Of a stretch of DNA of 23,140 bases, positions 2,940 through 23,140 are shown piece after piece. Every line of letters begins with the position of its first letter. Position 1 is the stretch's first letter. A program made the position numbers and the translations under genes. Source of the DNA: a virus (Duplodnaviria; Heunggongvirae; Uroviricota; Caudoviricetes); IMG/VR virus record IMGVR_UViG_2869924733_000002. One strand, written 5' to 3'. The notes beneath the pieces are model-generated. The model had not been told where the DNA came from. It did not search any database and was given only the letters and a program-made list of their open reading frames with translations.

Positions 2940-3236
2940 ACGTCATACCCTCTGGAAGGATGAAACACGCCCGGATTAAATTTCATTTTTCGCGGGTATA
3001 AAAAAACGATGGGGCGGGCAGTCCCGGATAGTCAGGGCTGTAGAGATTTGACTACCCCCTCCCCACTGGATTCAGGTTACTGCTATTCCGTTAAGCGCTG
3101 CTTACGGGGATAGCTGCGTTGTGATTTTGACCATTCAGGTCGCCGCTATTTCCTCACCGATTGGGTGCTACGCGCGCGCGTACTTGTCCCGAAATACCAG
3201 AAACCGCCAGCCAGAGGATGATTTCCCTCTGGTGGT

Positions 3237-5780: not shown

Positions 5781-7879
5781 TTATTGAGCTTCTTTTTGTG
5801 ATGCCTGTGCGACTCTGGTGAGCGATTGTGTGACCGTACTGATCGCTCTGTCATATGCTGTGCTACCTTTTGGCGTATTTGCCAGACGTAACAAGGCATT
5901 TCGTATAACAGGGCTTTCGTATGCCTTCGCTGCTCCGCCTACGGCACCAGCAGCAGGAACAACAAACGCAGCCGTTTTTAGCATCCCCGCTAATACTGCT
6001 GCGTTTATGATGCCACCACCAACTAACAATCCATAAAGCTGCTGACCATTTAAGTTTTGAACGTTCGCTTTTGCCGCGTGTCTTGTATCGTTGAGGTATT
6101 TAATAACGCCGTCCAGTTCCTTTCCATGTACGCCTTTAAAGAAAGTTGCTGATTGCTTCCTGTTCCGGTGTAACGCATTAATAAACTTCTCAACACTGAT
6201 ATTTCCAGACGGATCAGTCGCCTTATCTACAGCATTCTGAACTATGGCTGCTCGTGCGTTTTGCCTACCATTGTCATCCAGAAGCCTGTAAAGCTGAGAA
6301 CGTTCTGATGGGCTTTGGCTAAAAACGAGTTTTGTTACATCCTCAGGCGTGGCCTTGCCGCTGGCTATTGCCTTTTGAACGCGCGTTCTTCCCATCATGT
6401 CATTGAATTTAGACCATGAGCGATCAACCCTTGCCATATTAATGGCTTCGTCTGCTCCAAGATTTTTGGCTACGGCTTTTTTCATATCCGCCGTATATGC
6501 CTTGTAGATAATATCGCTGGCTTTCTGGAGCGTATCTTTATCAACAGTGTCAGATGACGCCATAAATCGCTTTCGAAGATCGGTTCTGTTTTCCCTCGCC
6601 AGACGCAGGTCATTTGGTCCGCTGGTGATATCGTCTTTAAATTGCTGCAAGACTTTTACCGCGGCTCTATCCTGAGATTTGCCCGGGCGGCTTAACACGG
6701 CAATCTGATTGTCGATAGCTTTTACCGTGTTTGAGAGATCGACAGGGGTATCCCCCATAGCGTCAATTATGCGGTTATATCGCTTTCCTGCTGCCTCAAT
6801 GAATTTTTGTTGCCCTTTAGTCGCAGATTCATAAAGCTGTTTATCAGAAATGCCACCCAGACCATCGCTAAATGTTCTGACTAAATTTTCTCGTGCTTGT
6901 TGTTGATTCAGCCGATTCTTACCGGTTCCAAAAAAAGGAACTCTTTCGCCTAATGTCTGAGCCTGACTCTGCATAAAGGTTTTATCTTTCAGCATGTCAC
7001 TGGTCATTAACGGCAGATTTCTTTCCGATGCAAAGTCGACAGCAGCCTTTGCTTCAGGCGACATATCACCACGAACAGCCCTCGAAACCGCACTCGCTGT
7101 ATTTTCCAGCCCCTTACCAATACCACCAATGCCAGCAGAAATTACCGTTTGTAACGGATCAATATCTTCTCCACCAGCAAGGCTGGTGGCTCCCTGTAGT
7201 GCTAAATCTGTAGCTGCTGATTTTCCTATAGCACCAAGCACCGTTCCAGCCCTGCCCACTGGTGTAAACGCCAACGCATTAGCAAGAAACGAAGTCAGGT
7301 CTTGCGGTGATAAACCCGGCTTGTTCAGGGCATAATCACCTGATGGCAGAGAAACGATAGTATTCCCCTTCTCATCCTGCCTTAATGTCGCCCCCATTCC
7401 CTGAAGAATCTTTTCCTGAGACGCGTCAGAGCCGAAAAGTTGAGACCATCCAGCCTTTAGGGCATCCATGCTTAGTGAGTTCAATTCTGGGGCAGAGGTG
7501 ACATTTTGCAGTCTCTCCATCTCTGGAGTCATTCGGCTTTCGCCTGTTATAGCATCGCGCATCGCAGCCCCAAGACTGGCTCCCTGTTCTGCTGAACGCT
7601 CAAGCCCCTCTCTTTGCTGAGTAGCTAACTTTGCATACCCTGACGCAAGAGAATTATCAGATGATGTATGTTGAATATTTTGAGTTGCTGATTGGGATCG
7701 GTCTATTTCATTCGTTGATGGTAGTGGATAGGCAGCATAAAAAGCCTGCTTAGCCTGCTCTACACTTTCTCCGGCTTGCGGGGCAACGACTTCATTGAAG
7801 TATTGCTCCTGAGCCTGCGCTTTTTGTTCTGGTGCTAACGCCTGATACTGTGGAGAGGCGATAACATCTTTCCATGCTT
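5781..7879 (-). pseudogene. Large alpha-helical protein (about 701 aa when reconstructed), cut from its start codon by an IS insertion; DNA-ejection/internal-virion-protein-like (tentative)
   Basis: Track ORF 5781..7562 stays open upstream to 7879. Removing the IS (7882-8797) and one TA copy joins it to ATG GC at 8800-8804, giving MAKAWKDVIASPQYQ... in frame with a TAATG overlap to the upstream gene. Has a hydrophobic Gly/Ala-rich segment near the C-terminus. Confidence 0.6.
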
Positions 7880-7941
7880 TAGGCTGTGTCCCTTAATCAT
7901 CTGAGCTATAGTAACTGTCTGTTTACACAACATATTGAACT

Positions 7942-8391
7942 ATGGCTCGCTACGACCTTCCCGATGAGGCATGGACCATCATCAAGCCCCTGTTACCTCC
8001 TGAACCCGCCACACCACGGGCCGGACGCCCATGGGCTGAGCACCGTAAAATCATCAATGGCATGTTCTGGGTGTTATGTTCCGGTGCACCATGGCGCGAT
8101 TTACCCGAACGATATGGGTCATGGAAAACTGTTTATAACCGCTTTAACCGATGGTCAAAGTCAGGCGTGATTAATATTATTTTCAACAGGTTGCTTTCGC
8201 TACTTGATGCAAACGGCTTTATTGACTGGTCTGCCACCGCGCTGGATGGCAGTAATATCCGGGCGCTGAAATGTGCCGCCGGTGCTCAAAAAAACATCCC
8301 GATATCGACGGAGATAATGGGCCGGGTCGCTCTCGCGGCGGTTTTGGCACCAAAATCCATCTGGCAACAGACGGAAGTGGCCTCCCGTTAA
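7942..8391 (+). CDS. IS5-family transposase OrfA (N-terminal part)
   Basis: MARYDLPDEAWTIIKPLLPP... is the N-terminal domain typical of two-ORF IS5-family transposases. Overlaps OrfB in the -1 frame. Confidence 0.8.
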   Translation: MARYDLPDEAWTIIKPLLPPEPATPRAGRPWAEHRKIINGMFWVLCSGAPWRDLPERYGSWKTVYNRFNRWSKSGVINIIFNRLLSLLDANGFIDWSATALDGSNIRALKCAAGAQKNIPISTEIMGRVALAAVLAPKSIWQQTEVASR

Positions 8392-8786
8392 ATATCGTGC
8401 TAAGCCCCGGACAAGCTCATGAAAGCCAGTTCGCGCAACGACTTCTGGACGGGATTGGCGTTCAGCGTCAGAACGGCAGCATGAAACGCCGTGGACATGC
8501 GGTACTGGCTGATAAAGCGTATTCAGGGCGCGCATTGCGCAACGAGCTGAAAAATAACGGTATAAAGGCAGTAATCCCCCGAAAGTCAAATGAGAAAATG
8601 GCATCGGATGGACGTGCACAGCTTGATCGTGATGCGTACTGCAATCGTAATGTCGTTGAACGGTGCTTTGGGCGGCTGAAAGAATATCGCCGCATCGCCA
8701 CGCGTTACGACAAAACGGCGAGAAATTACCTGGCGATGGTGAAACTGGGCTGCATCCGACTCTTTTATCAACGCTTACGTAATTAA
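8271..8786 (+). CDS. IS5-family transposase OrfB (DDE domain); probably expressed as an OrfAB fusion by -1 frameshift
   Basis: DDE-type motifs (GGFGTKIHLATDGSGLP..., DKAYSG, VERCFGRLKEYRRIATRYDK). An A7 run at 8288-8294 lies in the OrfA/OrfB overlap. Confidence 0.8.
   Translation: MCRRCSKKHPDIDGDNGPGRSRGGFGTKIHLATDGSGLPLNIVLSPGQAHESQFAQRLLDGIGVQRQNGSMKRRGHAVLADKAYSGRALRNELKNNGIKAVIPRKSNEKMASDGRAQLDRDAYCNRNVVERCFGRLKEYRRIATRYDKTARNYLAMVKLGCIRLFYQRLRN
8288..8294 (+). other. Candidate programmed -1 ribosomal frameshift heptamer (AAAAAAA) in the IS5-family transposase
   Basis: OrfA reads caa aaa aac; OrfB reads tca aaa aaa cat, shifted by -1 over the same A-run. Confidence 0.5.
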
Positions 8787-9887
8787 GGGACACAGCCTAG
8801 CCATTAATCACCCCATAGTGAAGAAAAGTTACTGCTGGCTGCTGGCTGTGATACCTGCTCAGATTGCGGCAATGTCTGCGACGAAGAAGAAGTTCCTCTG
8901 TCAACTGCTGAAATAACCCGCAAAGCATCATAAGCTCGACCAGAAGCAGCTTTCAGCGAATTGAACTGGTTTTCCATCTTCCGGCGCTTGGTATCAATGG
9001 TTTTTGTGGAGTCGCCAGGCTGAGGGAAATACATTTGATAATATTTTGACATTTCAGCAGGTGCGATAGCTGCCCCTGTTTCCTGACGGAGTATTGCCAT
9101 TATTGCGTCATTAGCATTAACAACGTATTGCTGCTCTGTTGGGCTGAGCGTTAAGTTAGCCAGCGTCCCATTACCCAAAGCATTATTAATGATCGCCACT
9201 CGCTGTGGGCTAAGCTGGTCTTTCAGTGTATCTATTGAATCAAGAGCATCCCTAACCCTGTATGCAAATCCAGCAGCTTTTTTAGCCCCTTCTGGCGACT
9301 TTTCCATGATCTTTTGGGCTGTTGGCAAAGCTATTGGACGAAACCCATCTCCAGATATTGGCTGGTTTAGTTTTCCCTGCTCTTCACTTCCGTCTGTGTA
9401 GTATTTTGTGACAGTGCCATCATCGTTTTCTCTAACACTCATTAATTTTTTGGCGTTTGTATTAATTCCAGCCGCTGCCGCAAATGCCGCCGCCCCCTCT
9501 GGATCCGCCTTTAACATTTGAGCGTACTGATTGTAATTCTGCATTGCTGCTGTTGGTGCATATGCTGACGTTAACGCATTTGCTCGGCTAATATCCTGCC
9601 CTCTCGCCTGAAGTGCTTCGCCAGCCTGATTGCTGCGGATTGTCTCTGCCAACTTGCCACGCTCAATATCCCGACCTTCCATTTGATCTTTGATATCGAA
9701 ATACTTCTCATGACCGAGAGAAAACAGTGCCATACTACCAGCAAGCCGCTGGAATCCCTGTGGATCATTAACATGCATTTCGGCAACAGACTCAGGAGAA
9801 ATTCCCAAGCGACGCATTTCATCTTCGTTATCTGCTATGAATTTTCCAAATGCCCCAGTTCCGAGCGAAGATGCGATTTGAGCACTA

Positions 9888-11040
9888 AATAGCTGCGCTT
9901 AATACCGCTACACTTTTGCCAGTCCATGTTTGCCTCCGGGGAATGGGCTGACGGTTTCCATAAAATGGCGAACTTTTTTCAACAGTTGCCACATTGAGCG
10001 GCACTGATGATTACGCGTTATTGTGTCGTGAAGTGCCTGCCATAGCCGTTCAACATGATTCACCCATGGCGAGTAAACCGGCTGATAAATGACCCTGAAC
10101 TTCGGGTTCTCCTTCAGCCAGCTCTGTGTTTCCCGGCTTTTGTGGATAATGTAGTTGTCCACGATCAGCGTGATGGTTTTCGCCCGACGGTATGTCGCTT
10201 TAAGCCGCTTCAGCAGGCTGATGAACAGCGCCGAACTTTTGCTGTTGCCGCCCACATAGCTGACTTTACCTGTCCCGCTGTGCAGCGCTCCGGCCAGATA
10301 ATATTTTTCATTCTGTCCCGGCGTGACCACCCGTTTTTGCTGTCCGCGCAGTTGCCAGTCCGCACCGATTTTGGGATGAAGATGGATATCCACTTCATCT
10401 TCATAAAAGACCGGATGCTCTGCGCTGCATTCGTCCAGTGCTTTATGGATTGCTGCCATCTTTTCATCTTTATGCGGGTCACGGATACGCAGAGTTGGCG
10501 CAGCCCTTCGCCACACAATCCCCGCAGACGGCAACCAGCGGCGAACGGTTCCGGCATTTAACTGGCAACCGGTTATCTCATTGATTTTTATTGCCAGCAG
10601 TTCTGTACTCCAGCGTGAACGCTGGTAGCCAAAGTCGCCGGGAGAATGTTTTACCAGCTCACGTAACAGTGTGCAGATATGCTCAAACGGCCAGCGACGG
10701 GCACGCCCGGCAGGTAATGATTTCAGTCCCTCAACACCCGACTGCGTGAACCAGTTAATCCAGCGTCCAACAGAGGAACGGGCGCAGCAGAGCGTTCTGG
10801 CAACGTCGCTGACACGGTCGCCCCGGTGCAGCATCAGCATGGCAGTCAGTCTGCGGGCATAATTTTTATCGTGTGTTTTATGGATGGCTTTCTGCATCAG
10901 GCGTCGTTCGTCACGGGAAATTGGTGCTATGATCGGCATTGCTCAGTCCGGTTGGTGATTTGTTTTGATTTGGCGATTGATCAGATCGCACAATCCGGGC
11001 TAAGTTCCCTCAAAATGATCTACTATTCCGCGCAGCTATT
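9888..11040 (-). mobile_element. IS630 (1153 bp) inserted at a CTAG target with TA duplication
   Basis: Terminal inverted repeats: aatagctgcgc at 9888-9898 and its reverse complement gcgcagctatt at 11030-11040. TA at 9886-9887 and 11041-11042. Length is exactly 1153 bp, matching the recalled IS630 size. Confidence 0.9.
9908..10939 (-). CDS. IS630-family transposase (343 aa)
   Basis: Full-length 343-aa ORF inside the IS630 boundaries, recognised as the Tc1/mariner-like IS630 transposase. Confidence 0.9.
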   Translation of the reverse strand: MPIIAPISRDERRLMQKAIHKTHDKNYARRLTAMLMLHRGDRVSDVARTLCCARSSVGRWINWFTQSGVEGLKSLPAGRARRWPFEHICTLLRELVKHSPGDFGYQRSRWSTELLAIKINEITGCQLNAGTVRRWLPSAGIVWRRAAPTLRIRDPHKDEKMAAIHKALDECSAEHPVFYEDEVDIHLHPKIGADWQLRGQQKRVVTPGQNEKYYLAGALHSGTGKVSYVGGNSKSSALFISLLKRLKATYRRAKTITLIVDNYIIHKSRETQSWLKENPKFRVIYQPVYSPWVNHVERLWQALHDTITRNHQCRSMWQLLKKVRHFMETVSPFPGGKHGLAKV

Positions 11041-11379
11041 TAGTCGCAAGATGACCAATAGAATTTCTCTGGTCGTCATCAATAAAGCCCATCCCTTTCT
11101 GAACGCTTTCAAATTCTTCTGGATACTCAGAAATAAGACTGCGCATTTTGTTTCTGTCTCCAGACTCAAAAGCCCCGGCATATGCTTTCTGAAACTCTGC
11201 TTTACGCTGTTGTTGACGTGCCTGCTGATTAATCTCAGCAACGCCTCTTAGCCCCTGTAGCGCCATTAAACCTACGTTTGGGTGCTGCTGATACTGCACA
11301 GGCTGAGGAACGGAAGAACGAGGAGCATTATCATTTTGCGGTGCCATGCTAGGCAGCCCGCCAAGTTGCCATGTCGCCA

Positions 11380-13274: not shown

Positions 13275-16034
13275 TCATTCTTCAGATGAGTTATAATCTC
13301 CTGGCTGGTAATTGAGTACATAAACGTTTATTTGTCGTCCCTGAATACGTGGTGATTTTCTTTGGTATCCACGACCGCTGTTTGGTGGGGTTAGCATCCC
13401 GGCTTTTTTCAACACTTCAGCAAACTGTTTTGCGTTGAAACCACATGCGATCTCCTTTTCAAATGTGGCCGGGAATGTGTAGAAAATCATTGGGCTTTCG
13501 TCATGTTCTCCACGCTGACGGTATCCGGCTAAATCTTTGATGGGCAAATCTGCCGGGCTGTATGGAAATGGTGCAAAACGGCTAAGCCCATAGGCATTAA
13601 GAAATGCCTCCGTTTGTTCAATAATCTGCTGATGTTCTTTGTTACCTGTGCCGAACTCGCGCAACCATGCGTTATAGCTGTGCTGTATCGCATCACGGCA
13701 TGTCTGAGCATCCCAGCCTGTTACAACCTCGCCTAACAGCAATGCGGCCTCCAGAATGGCAAATCGCGCGGCTACACGGTGAACCTGCTCACCATAATCG
13801 GATGGGATCAGGTTTCTCCATCTGCTTTCGCAATCACGAACGGTTTTAATAGCCTGTTGCTGGTGGTCTGCCAGCCATTTAATCCACTCACGCCCGGCTG
13901 CGCCGTGGTGATGCTGGTAAGCGTCTTTCAGTGCGTCTGCGTGCTGTTTTCCGTTCTGGTAATCGTGAAAGCGTACTGCTTTACTCAACGGAATATTCAG
14001 CAGTCGCACCAGTTGCCCGGCTTTGGTTTTTCGCCCGGAAGTAGCGATAAATGTTTCTAAATCCATTTCTCCGGTGCTGATTGCCACTGTACGCCAGCGT
14101 TTTAGATCCCGGTTTCCACCATCTTTAGCGCCTTGCAGTTTCCCTACACCGTTAAATAACGCATAGGCAGACTGTGAAACGCTGACAGGATCAGCGCCCT
14201 GACCAACTTCATCAAGCGGCATTAGTCCGTCATTGTGGGCGGCGGCCTCATTTGCCAGCCCCAGCGCGGTTCCGTACCACGTCAGCCGCAGTAAATCAGG
14301 GTTGCCGTATAAGCTGCTCGCCACGTTTGCCGTGGTGGTCTTACCTGCGCTCGACTGCTCATAGAAATGAATGCCGAACCCGTCAGCGCCCACCAGCCCA
14401 ATCAATGGCGCTGCCAGTGCTGCGCCGATCCCGGTCATCATTGAATAGTTACCAAAGGCCAGACGCGCCACGTTATCACGCCAGCTTTTCGCGCTCCCTG
14501 AGACGGTATATCCGGCTGCGGCTGAGCTTCTCCCGCTGAACAGCACAGGATTTTCAGGTGTTCCGATGATTTCCCCATCAGGCATGATGTACGCTCCGCA
14601 TTGCCAGCCAGTGGCATGAGCAACACGCCACAATTCACGAGAGCCACTGCGTTGTAGCCAGTCTGCCAGTATTGCTCTGAGGCTGCTTTTGGTCGTGACA
14701 TTTACCCCACCAGCTTTAAGTGTGCGCCATCCTTCACGTTCACCAATATCAGCCAGTGGAATGGCAGCGGTTGTCGGCGTTTCAGAACCAAACGACAGCC
14801 AGCGAAGAATGAGATACTGGTCTTTATCGTCTCTGCCAGTACCGATAACGCTTAACGGAGAACATAACCAGCTTTCGTTATTGATGATTTCTCCACTCTG
14901 GCTGTCAGCTCTCGGAGATACCCAATAAATACCATCCTCGCGGCTTTCTATTCTTGGTTTCAGTGGGTCGGTATCCATAACCTTAAAATCGCTTCCCTCA
15001 ATGGTCTGTGGCTCCTGTTTCACGCCATTACCCTGTGGTTGGTACATTGACTTATTGAACGCTTCTGTGGCGCATTTAATGCCGTGTTTTTGGTGGTAAT
15101 CATTCCAGTCTGCTTTGTGATCTGTCGGGGGTAATGCCACCCATCCAGAAACAGATAAAGCTGCTTTTTCTGCTGCTATTCTCCCCGTGTTTTGTCTTCC
15201 TTCGCTGTGGTCGTTATCCGCAGCAATGATGATTTGTGCTGAAGGAAATTTATCCCGCAGTACCTGGGCGACATATAACAGGTTCCCGGCATCAATCGCC
15301 GCCACTGTCAGCGCCTCTGGACGAATTAAATGGGCAGATAATGCCGTTGCCAGCCCTTCTGCGATTAAGATGCTCTGTGTTGTTTCTGGCGCGTTTATGG
15401 CGTGATATGCCCCCCGCTTTGCTGAACCTGTCAGGAGTCTTTTTTCACCATGTGATGTAATAGTCTGTGCTGCTGTGACTGCGCCGGATTTATCCACCAG
15501 CGCCAGCAACAGAGATCCATCGGGCAACACGGGGAATGTAAAATCACCTACCCCTTTCGCAACCAGATAATCAGATTTGCCGTTTACAGCCTTTCTGCGC
15601 ATGTCATCAAACTGACGGGAAAACGTATCCCGTCTTTGTTGTTCGTCCTTCTCTGCCCTTTTCAGGCGCTCCTGTTCGCGTCGCTGGCGCTCGGTTTCCA
15701 GTTGTTCCCGTTTCTGGCTGGTGGCTTCTGGTGTTTCCGTTGTCCGGTAATCAATACCCAGAACATCAGCGGCAAGAAGCGCCGCCTCTGTTGTGTCGCA
15801 GTTATTTACGCGTTTAATTAAATCCAGCCCATCACCAGCGCCGCACTGATTACAGATGAAGCTACCGCGCCCGTTGTCATCGAACCGGAATCGATCTTTG
15901 CCCCCACATGCAGGGCAGGGAGCATGACGGCGCGGAGAGTCAGGGACATTTATGTTCAGGCAGCCCAGCACATGAGGCCAGTTGTTTTCAGACGCACTGA
16001 TAACCTGACGGATAAGATCAATGTTTCGCATCAC
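13275..16034 (-). CDS. P4 alpha-like bifunctional DNA primase-helicase
   Basis: 919 aa. N-terminal Cys-rich zinc-binding motif (CPACGGKDRF...CNQCG), primase-like acidic motif (IIIAADNDHSEG), then a P-loop (EQSSAGKTT) in the helicase part. Start is GTG at 16034 or ATG at 16031. Confidence 0.9.
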   Translation of the reverse strand: MMRNIDLIRQVISASENNWPHVLGCLNINVPDSPRRHAPCPACGGKDRFRFDDNGRGSFICNQCGAGDGLDLIKRVNNCDTTEAALLAADVLGIDYRTTETPEATSQKREQLETERQRREQERLKRAEKDEQQRRDTFSRQFDDMRRKAVNGKSDYLVAKGVGDFTFPVLPDGSLLLALVDKSGAVTAAQTITSHGEKRLLTGSAKRGAYHAINAPETTQSILIAEGLATALSAHLIRPEALTVAAIDAGNLLYVAQVLRDKFPSAQIIIAADNDHSEGRQNTGRIAAEKAALSVSGWVALPPTDHKADWNDYHQKHGIKCATEAFNKSMYQPQGNGVKQEPQTIEGSDFKVMDTDPLKPRIESREDGIYWVSPRADSQSGEIINNESWLCSPLSVIGTGRDDKDQYLILRWLSFGSETPTTAAIPLADIGEREGWRTLKAGGVNVTTKSSLRAILADWLQRSGSRELWRVAHATGWQCGAYIMPDGEIIGTPENPVLFSGRSSAAAGYTVSGSAKSWRDNVARLAFGNYSMMTGIGAALAAPLIGLVGADGFGIHFYEQSSAGKTTTANVASSLYGNPDLLRLTWYGTALGLANEAAAHNDGLMPLDEVGQGADPVSVSQSAYALFNGVGKLQGAKDGGNRDLKRWRTVAISTGEMDLETFIATSGRKTKAGQLVRLLNIPLSKAVRFHDYQNGKQHADALKDAYQHHHGAAGREWIKWLADHQQQAIKTVRDCESRWRNLIPSDYGEQVHRVAARFAILEAALLLGEVVTGWDAQTCRDAIQHSYNAWLREFGTGNKEHQQIIEQTEAFLNAYGLSRFAPFPYSPADLPIKDLAGYRQRGEHDESPMIFYTFPATFEKEIACGFNAKQFAEVLKKAGMLTPPNSGRGYQRKSPRIQGRQINVYVLNYQPGDYNSSEE

Positions 16035-16389
16035 CGTACCCCACGTGGTCTATAGCGTTTGCGATATGGCTAACCAGCATCTGCCACTTGGTTATTCCGT
16101 AATCAGTCAGCATGCCATCATTGTTTAGCCACATATCAAATTCAGCGGTTGTCGCAAGTTTCCACTTATCGCCGTGGACAGTCCTCATTGCTGGGTACAT
16201 GAATGCGCAAATCAGATCACAAACATCTGACGGCTTCAGAGATGTAGTAATGGTGCGTCCCTCTGGCGTCTGAATTGCCATTTTCTCTTCACCAGTAGAA
16301 TGAAGGTTATGAATCCACACAGCACCAGCAATCTTTGCCACCTGCTCTCCGATTGCGGAGCTAAGCGCCATTTCTGCATTTTCACGCAT
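16018..16389 (-). CDS. Hypothetical protein (123 aa)
   Basis: Strong SD (GGGAGG) before the ATG at 16389. Overlaps the primase start. Confidence 0.6.
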   Translation of the reverse strand: MRENAEMALSSAIGEQVAKIAGAVWIHNLHSTGEEKMAIQTPEGRTITTSLKPSDVCDLICAFMYPAMRTVHGDKWKLATTAEFDMWLNNDGMLTDYGITKWQMLVSHIANAIDHVGYGDAKH

Positions 16390-16723
16390 GAGAACCTCCC
16401 GCTACAGTTGCGCCCATGTCATTAACCATGCTTTGCCATATCTCACGCCCGACGTCAGTCAATCCGTCCTTAGTGACGCAACGCTCAAGAAGCTCGATCC
16501 CCACGGTTTCCCACTGCGGGTAGAACACTTTCATGGCTGCCAGTGTGTAGCTATCGATCAGGCTGCGAACGCCTTTTACTCCATTAACGATTTCCACACG
16601 TACGGCCTCGCCGTCCGCATCAACCATGAAATAGTCCCCGCCGCTGGTGGAGGTAATGTGGTTATACAGTGCCGACGCATACTTATTTGCCAGCGCATTC
16701 AGTCGGAAATTTTTAGTAATCAT
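16382..16723 (-). CDS. Hypothetical protein (113 aa)
   Basis: SD GAGGATGGAG before the ATG at 16723. Overlaps the downstream start by 8 nt. Confidence 0.6.
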   Translation of the reverse strand: MITKNFRLNALANKYASALYNHITSTSGGDYFMVDADGEAVRVEIVNGVKGVRSLIDSYTLAAMKVFYPQWETVGIELLERCVTKDGLTDVGREIWQSMVNDMGATVAGGSHA

Positions 16724-16733
16724 GGCTCCATCC

Positions 16734-17336
16734 TCAGTGCGTCACTGGTTCCGCTGGCATGCCGTTTTCATTCAGTTCAGCTATAAAGCTGTTGTGAAGT
16801 TCAGCAAGCGTTTCACGACCAAATGGAGTCAGTGCTCCTTGTTCCACATCCATCATGGCTCTGTAGAAAATGATGGCGCGTTCTGTGCCAGACTCGATGC
16901 CAAAACGTTCTATCATCGCTCCCTCAATGTTGTTTGCCATAGCGAGGCGCTCTGCTACTGGATACAGCGGCATGGCGACGATGCCGTTGGAATAAACAGC
17001 CACTTCGGAAGGATTGCCAGTATCATCAATGATGCTGACAGTGCCGTTTTCCTCTCTCATTTCCAGCATGAATACTGTTGCGATCAGCCATCTCCACATA
17101 ATGACGTTATGCTGTGATGTGTAATCGAAATATCCCTGGTTGCCGCCATCGGCAATAGCGAGATGTATTGACATACCTTCATCTGGTTTATCGTCATAAT
17201 CCCCGGCATCCAGACGATTTACGGCATCAATATATGAGACGGCCTCAACGCGTTCTGTCATGCCATCGTTGCTGCGGTACATGATGTTTACGCCGTCAGG
17301 CGTTGCTTCTGTATGGAAAGTTAAGAAATTATTCAT
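16734..17336 (-). CDS. Hypothetical protein (200 aa; track ORF 16734..17441 trimmed to the internal ATG)
   Basis: The ATG at 17336 (MNNFLTFHTE...) has an SD-like AGGCGAGG and avoids overlap with the upstream gene. The longer track start lacks an SD. Confidence 0.5.
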   Translation of the reverse strand: MNNFLTFHTEATPDGVNIMYRSNDGMTERVEAVSYIDAVNRLDAGDYDDKPDEGMSIHLAIADGGNQGYFDYTSQHNVIMWRWLIATVFMLEMREENGTVSIIDDTGNPSEVAVYSNGIVAMPLYPVAERLAMANNIEGAMIERFGIESGTERAIIFYRAMMDVEQGALTPFGRETLAELHNSFIAELNENGMPAEPVTH

Positions 17337-17550
17337 GTTTCGCCTCGCCTGAATGATTCTGTAACTCATATTTGCCCAACAATTCGTCCGCTTCCTGAAT
17401 AGCTTCTGGTACGCCATTGAGCAGTGACATAACCGCGCCAATCATTAACTTGTCTCTGTTGCTGGGGCTGGCCCCTTCAAGCCAGAACCCTAAAACAGTC
17501 TGAACCTGTTCGATGCGACATTGCGCTTCAATGAGCTGGATGTTGGTCAT
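17329..17550 (-). CDS. Small hypothetical protein (73 aa)
   Basis: SD GGAGAG before the ATG. Overlaps its neighbours by a few nt on both sides. Confidence 0.5.
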   Translation of the reverse strand: MTNIQLIEAQCRIEQVQTVLGFWLEGASPSNRDKLMIGAVMSLLNGVPEAIQEADELLGKYELQNHSGEAKHE

Positions 17551-17810
17551 TTCGCACTCTCCACATCGATTAAACCGATATCTATCAGGGAGGTAACTTT
17601 TTGTAGCCAGCTATTGATTACTGTCGCCTGTTCCCCGCCCACCGAGGGAACAATCTCATTCATCACATGAACCAGACCTGTGCGCGCTCTGGTAAGCCGT
17701 TCAGTCGCGCAATCTGCGGGAGTGAATGTGTCTGGATATGGCTCTTCACGCCCCAGCAATGATTCAATTTCCAGCTCACACGGATGACGATAAATTAAGT
17801 TGATATTCAT
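17547..17810 (-). CDS. Small hypothetical protein (87 aa)
   Basis: SD GGGGGTG before the ATG at 17810. Start overlaps the upstream stop. Confidence 0.5.
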   Translation of the reverse strand: MNINLIYRHPCELEIESLLGREEPYPDTFTPADCATERLTRARTGLVHVMNEIVPSVGGEQATVINSWLQKVTSLIDIGLIDVESAK

Positions 17811-18001
17811 TTTTCACCCCCAAGAATTACCAGCTCGGCACGGGCATCGTTAACCAAAGATGAGCACGCTTTAATCGCATCCACGACATCAGTAGCGTCC
17901 ATTTCTTCAGCCGAAAGACTGACAGCAACCAGGACAGCCGCTGCTTGCTCGATTAATTGAAGTGCGGACGTAAGGCGAGGGGTATTAATTGAGTTATTCA
18001 T
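17807..18001 (-). CDS. Small hypothetical protein (64 aa; track ORF 17807..18058 trimmed to the internal ATG)
   Basis: [23 protein letters not shown]... The ATG at 18001 is preceded by a G-rich SD. Confidence 0.45.
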   Translation of the reverse strand: MNNSINTPRLTSALQLIEQAAAVLVAVSLSAEEMDATDVVDAIKACSSLVNDARAELVILGGEK

Positions 18002-19061
18002 TGGTTGCCCCCGTTTTTCCTGGCATTTCGCCACCTTCCAGCAGGAAATGAACGTCACGAACGGCGAGATCCAATATCGCGAGTAACGCCTTCAGTCTTT
18101 CGTCTCGTGAGGGAGAGTTGCTCACCAGAATGTCGTTAATCACTTCTGTCAGTGTGATGATCTGGCTTGTGCGTTCGAGGGGATCCATATGCACATCGTA
18201 GGTTTTAATCATGTGCCACCTCCATGCGGATACGACCAGCAAAAAAGCAGATGTGATCGCGCACCAGAGAACGGCGAGCATCGCGTTCAGACTCGGCAGC
18301 AATATGATGAATTTTGGCGGTAATTGTCGGGCAATCGCGGCGAACTGCGGCGATAATCCAGATAAATTGCGGTTTTTGGGTAGTGGTAGTAGCCAGCATG
18401 TGGCAGCCTCCTTGTACTGGGAGTTCTTCCCACCACCGGAGCTGCGAAACTCGCTGGTGGTGGACTGAACAGAGTTCGCAGTACCGGCGTACAAGGAAAC
18501 CGGCCAGCCTTTCGGCTGCCCTGTCCAGCCCACCATAATTTTGCAAGCGACGCGGATTATAACCGCATCACTGAAAAAAGTGTGAGTCTGGCTAACGGCA
18601 CAAAAAAAGACGCTCGGCGCGTCATGTGTCGCCTCGTACATTTCCGGGCTGCGAAACCCGGCACCCGTTTTATGAGGTGCCTTATAACCATAAACCGTGT
18701 TGCCGCATAACGGCAAGCTCTTTTTTATGGACTCCGAAAACTCACTATTGGAAGCACCAGATGCACAATACATCGCGCTCATTTCGTTAACGTCGCGCGT
18801 GTGGACGAAGGTTTTTGTGGAGTCACTACGCGAGCAGAGAAAGCCATCTACGACCAGAAATTCTCTGGCGCAGCCGCCGACCTTCTCAACGCTAACACCA
18901 TCGACCGTAATTTCTGACATAGTTAAGGCATCCGCTCCCACCACCAGAAAATGATAAACTTTGCTTGTATCTGCTGTATTAATGCCAGACTTTGCTGTCA
19001 TATTGCTGGATTTTGGCGACATACCAGCCAGTGAAAATATCTTCTTCTGGACGGTTAGCAT
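17994..19061 (-). CDS. Gene with a strong start at 19061; the 355-codon open frame has an ambiguous 3' end (see findings)
   Basis: ATG at 19061 with GGAGGT SD, 1 nt after the upstream stop. The N-terminal 150 or so residues look protein-like. The frame then stays open through a terminator-like hairpin (18601-18623), a structured region and an internal SD+ATG at 18212 (MIKTYDVH..., 72 aa). Confidence 0.4.
18205..18399 (-). CDS. Small hypothetical protein (64 aa) in an alternative frame
   Basis: AAGGAGG sits 7 nt upstream of the ATG at 18399 ([19 protein letters not shown]...). Its stop overlaps the internal ATG at 18212. Confidence 0.4.
   Translation of the reverse strand: MLATTTTQKPQFIWIIAAVRRDCPTITAKIHHIAAESERDARRSLVRDHICFFAGRIRMEVAHD
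18601..18623 (-). terminator. Putative intrinsic terminator or attenuator inside the long open frame
   Basis: Minus strand: GACGC-GCCGA-GCGTC hairpin followed by TTTTTTT. A TGA in another frame sits just before it. Confidence 0.35.
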
Positions 19062-19237
19062 TTGTTAACCTCCGCGAACTCCTTCATGAAGCGCGCCAGC
19101 GGTTGTACGCATGGCGATTGATACCCGTCGCGATAAAACGTCACTCGGTTGTGAGACACGCTTTCGACAGTAACGAGTGCTCCGTGGGCATCCTTGTAGC
19201 GTTTTTGAGGTTGTGGTGTTCCTGTCGGCTTAAACAT
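19055..19237 (-). CDS. Small hypothetical protein (60 aa; track ORF 19055..19324 trimmed to the internal ATG)
   Basis: GGAGGTGG lies 4 nt upstream of the ATG at 19237 (MFKPTGTPQPQKRYKDAHG...). The longer track start would overlap the upstream gene by about 95 nt. Confidence 0.5.
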   Translation of the reverse strand: MFKPTGTPQPQKRYKDAHGALVTVESVSHNRVTFYRDGYQSPCVQPLARFMKEFAEVNKC

Positions 19238-20063
19238 GGACCACCTCCAGACGCTTAGCGAGCCAGCGTTGCGACAGGCGGGTGAGTTCTCCTTTGCGCT
19301 GCTCATATTCCATGCCCATATCAATTAACGTGATATTGGTGCTTTCGAGATATGAGAGGTGCTCAAGTTGTTCTGCGTTCATATGGTCGCGAGGTTCGCC
19401 AGAATAGCCATTTATCCGCGCCCACTGCTTAGCAGTTAGCCCACCAAGAACGATACGAGAAATCATATTGCTCTCGTTTGTGTAGTGGTGTTGCTGCGTC
19501 GTTTTCCCCTGCTCGGCACGGGCCATATTCAGCGCATCGCACATTGGCTTAAAGTTGTTTGCGGCACTGATACGGGCTTTTAGCTGGCGACGATAGCGGG
19601 CGGCGATTTCAGGAACGCTACGCTGTAATTCTTCCTCGCACTGGATGAAATAACGGCGGATAGCGCGACCCTGATCATTGCGTTCGATCATTGCCAGTTC
19701 TTTCGCCATTCCGACACTTAACAGATAGTCTTTGCCGGGTCTGCCAGACTGCTTAATCTTTCTGTAAGCCGCGCCATTCGGGCTTTTCCCCAAATTTGGG
19801 GAAATAGTTTTATGGACTGAGTAATCGTGCCCAATGGTGAAGTCATATTCAGAGATGCGATCAGTGATCCATGTAGAGAAGTCTTTTCCCACGCCCAACG
19901 CTTTGTGTAACGCTTTTGCGCTAACAATATTGGTTTCACGCCCACCGATATGACCAGGAATAACCGGGACAATTGCGGCAAATTCATTACCGTTAATTGT
20001 GCTCAGAGAGGCGTTCAGATGAGGGGCGGCCTCAGAAATTAATCTGCTTTTTTCGATGTTCAT
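19230..20063 (-). CDS. Phage antirepressor/regulatory protein-like (Ant/KilAC/Rha-type), 277 aa
   Basis: The block SAKALHKALGVGKDFSTWITDRI ... KDYLLSVGMAKELAMIERNDQGRAIRRYFIQ resembles recalled antirepressor signatures. SD GGAGA before the ATG. Confidence 0.55.
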   Translation of the reverse strand: MNIEKSRLISEAAPHLNASLSTINGNEFAAIVPVIPGHIGGRETNIVSAKALHKALGVGKDFSTWITDRISEYDFTIGHDYSVHKTISPNLGKSPNGAAYRKIKQSGRPGKDYLLSVGMAKELAMIERNDQGRAIRRYFIQCEEELQRSVPEIAARYRRQLKARISAANNFKPMCDALNMARAEQGKTTQQHHYTNESNMISRIVLGGLTAKQWARINGYSGEPRDHMNAEQLEHLSYLESTNITLIDMGMEYEQRKGELTRLSQRWLAKRLEVVHV

Positions 20064-20075
20064 TTTCAGTCTCCG

Positions 20076-20507
20076 TTAAGCGGCGTTAAACGCGTCCGGG
20101 TAGAGTTTCAGAATGTCGGCAATTTCCTGCTGAGAAAGTCCGTTGTGATCATTTATGTTCGCAAGATGGTTAATATGAGTGATCACTTTCAGAACATCAC
20201 CACGGCAGGAGAAACGGTAGCGAAGGTGTGTTCCGATACCATCAGGATTCTTTTCGTCGATACGCTCCAGAGTGATTCCAAGCTGGCGTTCTAACTCTGT
20301 TGCATAGTTACGACCAGAAGACAGACGGCAGTAGCGAAGAATGTCATTTTCTGTCCATCCCTCTATACCAGTACGCAGCATATAGACTCTGGCACGATGC
20401 TTTTTCGGTGTGCGCTTTGGTGCTTGAAGGGATTTTGTAAGGGGCGTAACATCAGATACGCGAATATCTGAATTAGCCGCCTGTAATGGGCGGTTTTTCT
20501 TATTCAT
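20076..20507 (-). CDS. Hypothetical protein (143 aa) with a basic N-terminus
   Basis: Start overlaps the AlpA stop as TAATG. No family recognised. Confidence 0.55.
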   Translation of the reverse strand: MNKKNRPLQAANSDIRVSDVTPLTKSLQAPKRTPKKHRARVYMLRTGIEGWTENDILRYCRLSSGRNYATELERQLGITLERIDEKNPDGIGTHLRYRFSCRGDVLKVITHINHLANINDHNGLSQQEIADILKLYPDAFNAA

Positions 20508-20704
20508 TACGCTACCTCGCCACGCGACTCAGCGATGCGCTGATTAATCCATTCTTCAATTTCACTTTCAATAAACGCAATTGATCGGCTTCCAATCTTT
20601 ACAGATTGAGGGAATCGCTGTTCTTTGATGAGCCGATAAATCCACGCTTTGCTGTAACCAGTACGGCGTTGAACCTCAGAAAGACGAATAAATGATTGAG
20701 ACAT
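20507..20704 (-). CDS. alpA: AlpA-family phage transcriptional regulator / excisionase-like protein
   Basis: 65 aa, MSQSFIRLSEVQRRTGYSKAWIYRLIKEQRFPQSVKIGSRSIAFIESEIEEWI. SD AGGAG upstream. Confidence 0.85.
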   Translation of the reverse strand: MSQSFIRLSEVQRRTGYSKAWIYRLIKEQRFPQSVKIGSRSIAFIESEIEEWINQRIAESRGEVA

Positions 20705-20822
20705 GTTTACTCCTATATTCTGTCATCTTCTTTAATGGACATCAGTAGACAGAAAGGAGATTAAACAAACCGGTGAATGGGTGATAGCGGATAAAAATAA
20801 AATATTTTTTTGAGAAGATTAT

Positions 20823-20857
20823 CCGCTTTGAAATACACAGTAGCGTATTCAAAGCGG
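20823..20857. promoter_or_regulatory. Imperfect inverted repeat (13/14-bp arms) upstream of alpA; putative operator
   Basis: CCGCTTTGAAATAC - acagtagc - GTATTCAAAGCGG. No adjacent T-run on either strand, so it does not look like a terminator. Confidence 0.3.
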
Positions 20858-20901
20858 AAATCGCGAAATTTACTTAAAACGTTTACGTAGGATTTTGCTT
20901 G

Positions 20902-21783
20902 CTATAAATCTCTACTCATTAAATCAGATATTTTTATCAAGCTCATTTCTCTGTCTTTGTTTACATAAAGCTGAAGCAAGCGGGTGTATCTCTCGCTTAT
21001 AGATTCAAGTGCAAAAGGCTTTATTGATTCCTTAATAGCCTGCGTATCTTTCGGATCATCACTAAAAACCAAGGCAGAAATCATCGGATTGCTCACTTCC
21101 TTACCTGACTTCTCACCCCAAATCAGCAGATCAACAATAGGTATCACTCTATTAGATATCAACTTCTGAAGGGTCTTTAATCCAATCCTTTTCTGAGCGA
21201 CATGCTCTCTCTCTGGTACTTTTAACTCTTTTCGCCATAGAGGTAGAAGGTGAGTCAGGCTGGTAATAATTTCGTCATCAGTGGCGTCATCTAAATCTAT
21301 AGAAACGAGTATGATGTTAGGGGAACAATTACTTAGGTTTCCAGTAACACTCGCAAGCATAGCGTTTGCCTTGAGGTAGCAATCCTCTTCGTCTCTTTTA
21401 AAAAAGCCTTGATCTATCGATGAGAAAGAGTACATGGCCAGCTCTGAAAATGTTACTGGACTAACCCCCATAGCTGAAGATAATGAGGGAAGATCATCGT
21501 ACTCATTTCTTAATGATGGGGCTTCATCATTTACTTTGCGAATAAATTCTTCGACCTCTTCCTCTTCTTCATTGAGAATGGTTAGGTTAGGATCGCCCGA
21601 AAAAATCCTTTCATATTTTATATCGTACTCTTCTTTGAATATAGCAGTGTCATCTTTTGCATGACGCAATAAAAAATCGCGCCACTCTAATTCTTGAATC
21701 AAGTCCGGCAAGGTTAAATCATTTAAAAATTCATAATTACTAATATCAAACCATGCTAAATCTTGTTTTTTGGCTCTCACCAT
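20902..21783 (-). CDS. Hypothetical acidic protein (293 aa), AT-rich cargo gene between integrase and alpA
   Basis: Visibly AT-richer than its neighbours. G-rich SD before the ATG at 21783. Acidic stretch ILNEEEEEVEEF. No recognisable family. Confidence 0.65.
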   Translation of the reverse strand: MVRAKKQDLAWFDISNYEFLNDLTLPDLIQELEWRDFLLRHAKDDTAIFKEEYDIKYERIFSGDPNLTILNEEEEEVEEFIRKVNDEAPSLRNEYDDLPSLSSAMGVSPVTFSELAMYSFSSIDQGFFKRDEEDCYLKANAMLASVTGNLSNCSPNIILVSIDLDDATDDEIITSLTHLLPLWRKELKVPEREHVAQKRIGLKTLQKLISNRVIPIVDLLIWGEKSGKEVSNPMISALVFSDDPKDTQAIKESIKPFALESISERYTRLLQLYVNKDREMSLIKISDLMSRDL

Positions 21784-21925
21784 ACGCCACCCCGCGCCCC
21801 TAATTCTGACGGCTATGCCAGCCCGTAGGGGTGTACGGGTTTTCGGGGATCAGCCTAGACATAGCCTATTCTTTGTTCGTCTACATAAGTCTACTACCAT
21901 TGCTTAACACGGTCTATTCATACAG

Positions 21926-23140
21926 TTAAGCTCGTTTCCCAAACGAACCATGAACAACGTTCTCCTCCTTCTCCAGCGCATCCATATAGTCGGCATACCA
22001 TTGAAGCATCTCCCGCCTTCCATCCAGATATTGCGCATGGTTGTATGTGCCACGAATTGAGTTCTTATCAACGTGAGCGAGCTGCGTTTCTATCCACGCG
22101 GTGTTATAGCCCTGCTCATGCAAAATCGTGCTCATAGTGTGCCGGAACCCATGACCAGTTACACGTCCAGCGTAGCCAATGCGCTTAAACACTTGGTTTA
22201 TGCTGGCCTCACTCATTGTTTTCCTTGGATCATTGCGCCCGGGAAACATAAGAGGGTAATTGCCTGTTATTTCTCTAATCTTCCCAATAAGCGAAAGAGC
22301 CTGATCAGACAATGGCACAATATGAGGCCGCCGCATTTTCATACGTGAAGCGGGTATCTCCCAGATAGCCTTGTTGAAATCAATTTCATCCCATAATGCG
22401 CCACGTAGTTCGCCAGTCCGCAAGCCGGTGATAATCAGTAGACGAGCCGCCATAACAACCAATGCGCTTCCTGAGTAACTGGACAATGCCTTGAAAAAAT
22501 CAGGTAATTCTTTAGCTGTAAGGAAAGGGTAATGATTAGATTCATGGCCTTGCATCGCGCTAGTAAGGTCTGGTGCAGGGTTATACTCTGCGCGACCAGT
22601 GACTATTGCATAGCGGAAAACTTCCCCGCACCGCTGCCTCACTTTTTTGGCTTTTTCTGTAGCACCGCGCCCCTCGATGCGCCGCAGCACATTCAGAAGT
22701 TCAAGTGGTTTGATTTCGGCGATTGGTTTTTTGCCAATGTAAGGGAACACATCTTTGTTGAAGGCTTCGAGGATGTCTGAAGCATAACCAGCAGACCATT
22801 TTTTTAATTTGCTGCTGTGCCACTCAAGGGCAATATCTTTGAAGGTGTTGTTTAACTGCGTTTCCCGGGCAATCTTTTCCTCTCGTTTCGCTTCCATCGG
22901 ATCGATACCACCAGCGATACCTCTTTTCGCATCTTCACGTTTTGCCCGAGCATCGGCTAGAGTAACCTCAGGATACACACCTAGTGCCAATAGCTTCTCT
23001 TTACCAGCTACACGATATTTAAGTCGCCAGTATTTACCTCCATTAGGTTTTACCAAGAGATACAAACCGCCACCATCGGCCAGCTTGTAAGCCTTCTCTT
23101 TTGGCTTGGCTGTGTCTATTTGACGGGCATTGAGTTTCAC
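21926..23140 (-). CDS. P4-type tyrosine integrase (N-terminal arm-binding domain plus catalytic domain), 5' end at the window edge
   Basis: N-terminus AKPKEKAYKLADGGGLYLLVKPNGGKYWRLKYRVAGKEKLLALGVYPEVTLADARAKR is the P4-integrase arm-binding signature. Catalytic region has HGFRHTMSTILHEQG and the HAQY tyrosine motif. The GTG at 23138-23140 is probably one codon short of the real start. Confidence 0.9.
   Translation of the reverse strand: MKLNARQIDTAKPKEKAYKLADGGGLYLLVKPNGGKYWRLKYRVAGKEKLLALGVYPEVTLADARAKREDAKRGIAGGIDPMEAKREEKIARETQLNNTFKDIALEWHSSKLKKWSAGYASDILEAFNKDVFPYIGKKPIAEIKPLELLNVLRRIEGRGATEKAKKVRQRCGEVFRYAIVTGRAEYNPAPDLTSAMQGHESNHYPFLTAKELPDFFKALSSYSGSALVVMAARLLIITGLRTGELRGALWDEIDFNKAIWEIPASRMKMRRPHIVPLSDQALSLIGKIREITGNYPLMFPGRNDPRKTMSEASINQVFKRIGYAGRVTGHGFRHTMSTILHEQGYNTAWIETQLAHVDKNSIRGTYNHAQYLDGRREMLQWYADYMDALEKEENVVHGSFGKRA

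Follow-up and report, generated by a model that had tools for sequence, protein, structure and literature searches.

A conserved A7 run in the orfA/orfB overlap of an ISSfl7 copy as a probable programmed recoding site

The window analysed here is a 23,140-nt stretch of DNA from a Caudoviricetes virus record (IMGVR_UViG_2869924733_000002) and carries a complete copy of the insertion sequence ISSfl7, lodged in a P22-like prophage with minus-strand genes at 5781-7562 and 8804-9817 (Table 1). The terminal inverted repeats of the element match at 16/16 of their outermost positions and at 21/25 overall. When the IS and one TA (7882-8799) were removed and 7481-7881 was joined to 8800-9200, the resulting 802 nt matched, at 100% identity, uninterrupted P22-like prophages of several E. 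coli genomes, the matched site being where a gene annotated 'injection protein' meets one annotated 'phage DNA ejection protein'. This identity sets the bounds of the element at 7882-8797, establishes that the duplicated target is the 2-bp TA and shows that the element arrived by transposition. The insertion point lies directly 3' of the stop codon of a gp20-like gene, at a junction that is common in its intact form in E. coli prophages, and two codons into a gp16-like 'DNA ejection protein' gene on the minus strand (ATGGCTA/AAGCA..., the slash marking the insertion). Since the IS parts the gp16-like gene from its start codon, this gene is presumably inactivated.

Further mobile elements lie in the same window. 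An IS630-family element with 21-nt inverted repeats (9884-11044), whose DDE_3 transposase ORF of 343 aa occupies 9908-10939 on the minus strand, interrupts the gp20-like (Inj_translocase) ejection-protein gene, and the prophage has thus been hit by at least two IS elements. The first 819 nt of the plus strand (1-819) encode an IS3-family OrfB (rve integrase core, HTH_21) that is cut by the window start, so that the orfA/orfB frameshift site of that element would fall outside the window; another A7 run, at 818-824, overlaps the end of this OrfB. A P4-like satellite/integrative module on the minus strand (13275-23140) adjoins the P22-like remnant.

Table 1 Features of the ISSfl7 copy and of the adjoining P4-like module
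Feature	Position	Strand	Remarks
TA target-site duplication, left copy	7880-7881		empty-site reconstruction
Complete ISSfl7, IS5 family	7882-8797	+	916 bp; 99.6-99.9% identical to E. coli/Shigella copies
Left terminal inverted repeat, GGCTGTGTCCCTTAAT...	7882-7906	+	first 16 nt perfect
orfA	7942-8391	+	149 aa; DUF4096 DNA-binding part and first catalytic Asp (D102)
OrfAB transposase	7942-8786	+	281 aa; conceptual join(7942..8292, 8292..8786)
orfB frame (-1 relative to orfA)	8256-8786	+	fusion residues 118-281; D191, E240, Y-R-E-K signature
A7 run	8288-8294	+	8289-8294 the same in 47/47 distinct relatives; 8288 is A in 45/47
In-phase slippery heptamer A_AAA_AAC	8289-8295	+	P-site AAA 8290-8292, A-site AAC 8293-8295
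Right terminal inverted repeat	8773-8797	+	first 16 nt perfect
TA target-site duplication, right copy	8798-8799		empty-site reconstruction
DUF927/Toprim primase	13275-16034	-	P4-like module
Ash-family protein	17994-19061	-	P4-like module
C4 antisense RNA	18453-18540	-	P4-like module
isrK RNA	18603-18680	-	P4-like module
int-alpA RNA	21798-21865	-	P4-like module
Integrase	21926-23140	-	P4-like module

Copies of the element are found on E. coli chromosomes and on Shigella and E. coli plasmids, where they are annotated as 'IS5-like element ISSfl7 family transposase', and the copy on S. flexneri pCP301 (AF386526) bears the name 'ISSfl1 ORF1/ORF2'. ISSfl7, or 'ISSfl1', is the same element as the window copy and differs from it in the insertion site and one codon. 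At the nucleotide level the window copy departs from the chromosomal copy of E. coli RMDEC364 at a single position (8640) and from the pCP301 copy at four. Residue 234 of the transposase is Cys in the window, pCP301 and S. sonnei copies, Arg in RMDEC364 and more distant relatives, and Lys in the aligned single-ORF relatives; it adjoins the Y-R-E-K signature without being part of it. The exact window OrfA is annotated in Shigella sonnei as 'ISSfl1 ORF1' and the exact 281-aa fusion sequence is annotated there as well, while in RefSeq (PGAP) the CDS of the RMDEC364 copy, WP_086020927.1, is joined from two pieces and labelled 'programmed frameshift'. The ORFs, inverted repeats and TA duplication of the window copy are intact and its proteins are identical to those of copies on other replicons, and it is fair to call the copy intact in appearance and potentially active. 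A sigma-70 promoter scan of the IS returned nothing convincing in its left end.

The stop codon of orfA lies at 8389-8391, and the -1 frame is open from 8256, with its first ATG at 8271 and its stop at 8784-8786. The two frames therefore overlap by 136 nt (8256-8391), and the A7 run falls inside this overlap. A preliminary description of the DNA had placed an A7 run at 8288-8294 in the overlap of OrfA with an OrfB in the -1 frame, and the window coordinates and reading frames bear out both statements. The part of orfA 3' of the shift site is a tail of 32 codons that is translated only without a shift.

Reading orfA through the AAA at 8290-8292 and then stepping one base back yields OrfAB, which matches the NCBIfam model NF033580 (IS5 family transposase) over its full length with 316 bits against a cut-off of 110. 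Its Pfam matches are to PF13340 (DUF4096, residues 6-80) and PF01609 (DDE_Tnp_1, residues 98-271), the latter spanning the frame junction at residues 117/118, and full-length IS5-family transposase models are matched only by the fusion. Aligned with three single-ORF relatives the fusion is collinear and has no gap at residues 117/118; the nearest gap, of 4-5 columns, lies just 3' of the junction, where the window protein slightly exceeds the relatives in length. Residues invariant with respect to the single-ORF relatives are D102, encoded by orfA, and D191, Y233, R236, E240 and K247, encoded by orfB, and the Y-2-R-3-E-6-K signature of IS5-type DDE transposases is present. As D102 is encoded in OrfA and D191 and E240 in OrfB, only the fusion can be the transposase, and from the division of the triad it can be predicted that OrfA or OrfB alone is catalytically incompetent. 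The complete DDE triad of IS427-group elements is likewise found only in the fusion (PMC3281130).

The AAAAAAA run is bounded by C8287 and C8295, and the window reads CGGTGCTCAAAAAAACATCC at 8280-8299. The zero-frame codons around the run, with the phase set by the orfA start, are GCT CAA AAA AAC, and A_AAA_AAC is a canonical -1 heptamer of the X_XXY_YYZ type in the correct zero-frame phase. On its own the motif is not unusual in the window, since AAAAAAAC occurs twice on both strands together against an expectation of 1.57, the second and last instance being at 3000-3007 (+), and the plus strand holds six A7 runs. Within the overlap about 0.005 occurrences of AAAAAAAC and about 0.035 of A7 are expected by chance. 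The significance of the A7 run thus derives from its placement in the ORF overlap and its strict conservation among relatives, not from its rarity.

Eighty related loci emerged from a scan in which each species was represented by one genome, the source genera including Symbiopectobacterium, Klebsiella (sp. WOUb02), Phytobacter, Enterobacter, Mixta, Photorhabdus, Erwinia and Brenneria; plasmid-borne relatives from Citrobacter, Serratia, Klebsiella and Pantoea share 79-86% DNA identity with the window copy. Nearly all relatives read ...GCN CAA AAA AAC AT... and have orfB in the -1 frame. In an alignment of 47 distinct full-length relatives from many genera (~79-99% DNA identity), all four bases are seen at the orfA-frame third positions 8277, 8283 and 8286, and the third positions 8262, 8268 and 8280 vary too. 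Third positions on the flanks of the run take 3-4 bases, whereas at 8289 and 8292, where CAG and AAG would encode the same amino acids, all 47 sequences have A; 8290-8294 are invariant, C8295 is kept in 45/47, and the third-position entropy shows a local dip at 8289-8315. The frozen synonymous positions 8289 and 8292 beside freely varying third positions indicate that the run is under purifying selection at the nucleotide level.

The A7C motif is found beside a conserved upstream anchor in 81 of 90 related loci, and in 34 of these 81 both parts of the gene are intact at the lengths of the window copy (117 + 164 codons). A single genome contains ten copies of one sequence type without a difference among them, a sign that the two-frame form has multiplied recently, and in one E. 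coli genome the two-frame element occupies 36 places. Taken together, the intact two-part loci, the ten identical copies and the 36 places argue that the two-frame form is the proliferating form. Variants of run length or motif are rare (A8 in L023, A6 in L049 and a missing C in E. coli R32) and occur in truncated copies or in copies already annotated as pseudogenes, the A8 locus L023 itself being truncated. The programmed -1 frameshifting proposed in the preliminary description finds support in the A-run frozen across the 47 relatives, in the multiplied two-frame copies and in the RefSeq note. The continued activity that the description derives from it may be expected from the intact ORFs, inverted repeats and TA duplication.

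Several of the related loci have peculiarities of their own. Nine copies in Klebsiella sp. WOUb02 (L014-L022) share an extra one-base frameshift in orfA, at about 858-952 of each locus and upstream of an intact A7C, and are nevertheless multi-copy, which suggests either that intact copies mobilise them in trans or that recoding takes place a second time. In Symbiopectobacterium a palindromic insert of about 95 nt lies directly 3' of the slippery site in L011, L012, L025 and L083, and further downstream in L024 and L081. It has the ends TATAGCCAA(C/G)CGAC...GTCGCTT(A/G)GCTATA and looks like a miniature inverted-repeat element that landed inside the IS. Two loci in unrelated taxa, L026 from a Martelella alba assembly and L029 from a Methylococcaceae MAG, encode proteins 92-96% identical to those of the enterobacterial IS, reflecting either recent horizontal transfer or contamination. 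In L026 a TAA replaces the CAA just before the A-run, and orfA would end at the shift site.

Among more distant relatives from Alpha-, Beta- and Gammaproteobacteria, Actinomycetota and Bacillota, most tblastn matches at 30-45% protein identity are in two pieces. Of the nine two-piece elements that were fetched, eight have a -1 split at the position homologous to that of ISSfl7, which falls between ...AAGA(K/Q)K and ...GRSRGG, and in six of these eight an obvious slippery run rich in A or G is seen at the split. These runs include A_AAA_AAG in ISKpn12, A8 in ISLpl3, runs of the AAAAAG/GGGGGG types in alphaproteobacterial elements and G_GGG_GGA in Brucella and Paracoccus. The comparison with IS427-group elements put forward in the preliminary description favours its reading. 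IS427-group elements captured in traps, and hence functional, are two-ORF elements in which a frameshift motif is conserved (PMC3281130), and one element of the group is tabulated with a +1 shift (PMC3196728). ISPst8 on a P. aeruginosa plasmid (L091) needs a +1 (or -2) shift at GGGAAAAAGGGGG, around position 525-545, and its annotated CDS is 853 nt long (1 mod 3), so that both shift directions occur in this IS5 subgroup.

Relatives with a single uninterrupted transposase ORF had been named in the preliminary description as the finding that would turn the split into a mutation. Such relatives do occur: ISSpu10 and one element each from Acinetobacter and Rhizobium have 36-45% protein identity, and ISPha1 is described as a natural single-ORF member of the IS427 group (PMC3281130). 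Of the former, the two that were inspected at the DNA level have ordinary codons and no homopolymer at the site. They are distant cousins with a different solution and do not make the window copy a mutant.

With the observed anatomy, phase, nucleotide-level conservation and collinearity of the fusion as a basis, the A7 run is very probably the programmed recoding site of ISSfl7. It is proposed that most ribosomes would translate orfA to its stop codon and produce a 149-aa DNA-binding protein without two of the three catalytic residues, and that a small fraction would shift by -1 on A_AAA_AAC and thereafter read the orfB frame as far as 8786. The shifted product, the 281-aa OrfAB, would be the sole carrier of the D102-D191-E240 triad and hence the transposase, and an abundant OrfA combined with a rare OrfAB would keep transposition rare. 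This is the standard logic of IS1 and IS3 elements (PMC5009743), by analogy with which OrfA probably acts as a regulator. A tandem ribosomal shift predicts Asn118 in the fusion (junction ...AGAQK-N-HPDIDGDNGPGR), while an A8 transcript or a P-site-only slip predicts Lys118. Judging from the sequence comparisons the recoding is rather likely to be mainly ribosomal. It may be inferred that the shift originates on the ribosome and not in transcription, and its efficiency and the role of OrfA are deduced in the same way; a search of the literature found no direct frameshift experiment on ISSfl7, IS427-group or IS5-family elements.

Stimulatory elements for -1 frameshifting, in the form of an upstream Shine-Dalgarno (SD) sequence or a hairpin or pseudoknot 5-9 nt downstream, are common and not obligatory, and neither was found at this site. 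Predicted folds of the 50 nt at 8296-8345 (z = +0.24) and of the 100 nt at 8296-8395 (z = -0.59) are no better than those of shuffled sequences, RNAalifold on 16 diverse relatives gives a weak consensus (-12.6 kcal/mol with a covariation term of -0.78), and Rfam has no match inside the IS at E<=5. A hairpin formed by GGUUUUGG and CCAAAAUC in the window copy was rejected as a stimulator because it is broken in Symbiopectobacterium relatives. The only upstream SD-like element is a GGNG 4 nt before the heptamer, which was likewise dismissed since its wobble base is variable and it lies too close. A spacing of 4 nt is too short for -1 stimulation, as known from dnaX and IS911. In E. coli reporters A_AAA_AAC is one of the weaker A-rich heptamers and hardly responsive to stimulators, with -1 frameshifting of 0.16% without a stimulator, 0.19% with that of IS911 and 0.74% with that of IS3 (PMC4066793, Table S3). 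With no stimulatory RNA element evident, the efficiency of the shift is expected to be low, on the order of 0.1-1% as in IS1.

Over the length of the transposase gene, third codon positions vary least among the 47 relatives at 8336-8366, 45-75 nt downstream of the run, a stretch that coincides with a conserved part of the OrfA tail (..VLAPKSIW..); the tail is always 32 codons long. Dual coding with this tail appears to be the simplest explanation, simpler than an RNA element, because the tail is invariant in length and conserved there, and 8336-8366 was accordingly set aside as a separate element.

The rival explanation that survives best, though we hold it to be unlikely, is that RNA polymerase adds an A on the A7/T7 run and so brings orfA and orfB into frame, either alone or together with ribosomal slippage. 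Homopolymeric A/T runs are prone to slippage by RNA polymerase and several IS elements exploit this property (PMC1088944; PMC5009743). In an E. coli reporter that is blind to mechanism, frame-shifted product reached 10% with an A7 cassette (PMC3711429), and AAAAAAA is avoided in all three phases of E. coli genes, possibly owing to slippage (PMC4066793). The +1 members of the wider group (ISPst8; PMC3196728) also belong on this side, as mixed directions hint at transcriptional realignment (PMC3711429). However, the runs documented as productive consist of nine, arguably eight, A's (PMC1088944; PMC3711429), and whereas a realignment site calls for 8-9 or more A/T, the run here has seven and is fixed in relatives. 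Close relatives keep seven A's followed by C, in one phase and with one direction of shift, and the single A8 and the single A6 among ~81 loci are damaged copies. The A_AAA_AAG (with six A's) and G_GGG_GGA of distant relatives are moreover classical ribosomal heptamers that are too short for the polymerase. It would be surprising if the fusion arose mainly by polymerase slippage on A7, or else if 8336-8366 were an unrecognised distal regulatory RNA element. If polymerase slippage were true, the A7 would be shorter than any run shown to be productive in enterobacteria.

Two further explanations are both very improbable. In the first the switch would lie in the DNA, replication slippage between A7 (off) and A8 (on) producing the transposase in a subpopulation of cells. 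Homopolymer runs are hypermutable, and one A8 and one A6 variant are indeed present among the relatives, but these are 2 of ~81 loci and degenerate copies, the run is fixed at seven across genera, and an A8 copy would leave no separate OrfA. In the second, OrfB would be made from the ATG at 8271 and work unfused with OrfA, as might be read from this start codon in the -1 frame and from the older pCP301 annotation, which lists ORF1 and ORF2 separately. There is, however, no convincing ribosome-binding site 5' of 8271, the catalytic triad is divided between the ORFs while the fusion is collinear with single-ORF transposases, and separate proteins would give the run no reason for its synonymous-site conservation. 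Least credible of all is the plain mutation, in which a single-ORF ancestor lost a base from an A8 and left the window copy a dead pseudogene: single-ORF relatives (ISSpu10, the Acinetobacter and Rhizobium elements and, from the literature, ISPha1; PMC3281130) and the A8 of L023 can be cited in its favour, but this reading was rejected on the sequences of close and distant relatives alike, because the single-ORF relatives are just 36-45% identical and the two inspected are without a homopolymer, L023 is truncated, close relatives of many genera share A7C, the -1 layout and the frozen synonymous sites, the same two-frame sequence recurs within genomes (at as many as 36 places in an E. coli genome), and the window insertion retains its TA duplication.

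A programmed shift at the A7 run, rather likely mainly ribosomal, is the preferred reading. The site is already known, as the window holds a copy of a catalogued IS, the recoding is part of the RefSeq annotation and the two-ORF layout of the IS5 subgroup is described in the literature. For annotation this means that orfA and orfB should be treated as one recoded transposase gene and not as a pseudogene or as two hypothetical genes. The window copy is to be listed as a potentially mobile ISSfl7 whose insertion has presumably inactivated the ejection-protein gene of a P22-like prophage. For the biology of recoding the locus brings nothing new, and it serves as a reminder that frameshifting in the IS5 family rests on comparative inference.

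ISSfl7 can be set beside three known groups of elements. It has the features of the IS5 family, namely a DDE-type transposase, a length of 800-1000 bp with inverted repeats, a target duplication of 2-4 bp, typically TA, and overlapping -1 ORFs with a motif, and IS5 is among the IS families that use frameshifting (PMC5009743). Within the family its features agree with those of the IS427 group as tabulated in PMC3281130, so that by these features it would be classed as IS427-like. Members of that group such as IS1248, ISPpa2 and ISPaes1 of Paracoccus resemble it in their length of 830-870 bp, mostly 2-bp duplications and short inverted repeats (PMC3281130), but share only ~30-45% protein identity with it, and their motifs are mostly A/G-rich (AAAAG/GGGGGG types) instead of A7C. 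In the IS3 family (IS911, IS150, IS2, IS600) an OrfA regulator is likewise accompanied by an OrfAB transposase that depends on -1 slippage at an A-rich heptamer. This heptamer is usually A_AAA_AAG or A_AAA_AAA, followed by a hairpin or pseudoknot and in some cases preceded by an SD, and such IS3-type stimulators were not found in ISSfl7. According to PMC3281130, trans-frame proteins had been demonstrated only for IS1 and IS3, and the shift of IS1 is proven by experiment whereas that of ISSfl7 is deduced from sequence comparison. IS1 belongs to an unrelated transposase family (IS1 vs IS5/DDE_Tnp_1) and has six A's where ISSfl7 has seven. Its insA/insB' pair nonetheless offers the closest parallel in mechanism, as it uses A_AAA_AAC in the same phase and fuses a DNA-binding ORF to a catalytic ORF in the -1 frame (PMC4066793; PMC3281130), with no established stimulator and at low efficiency (PMC4066793).
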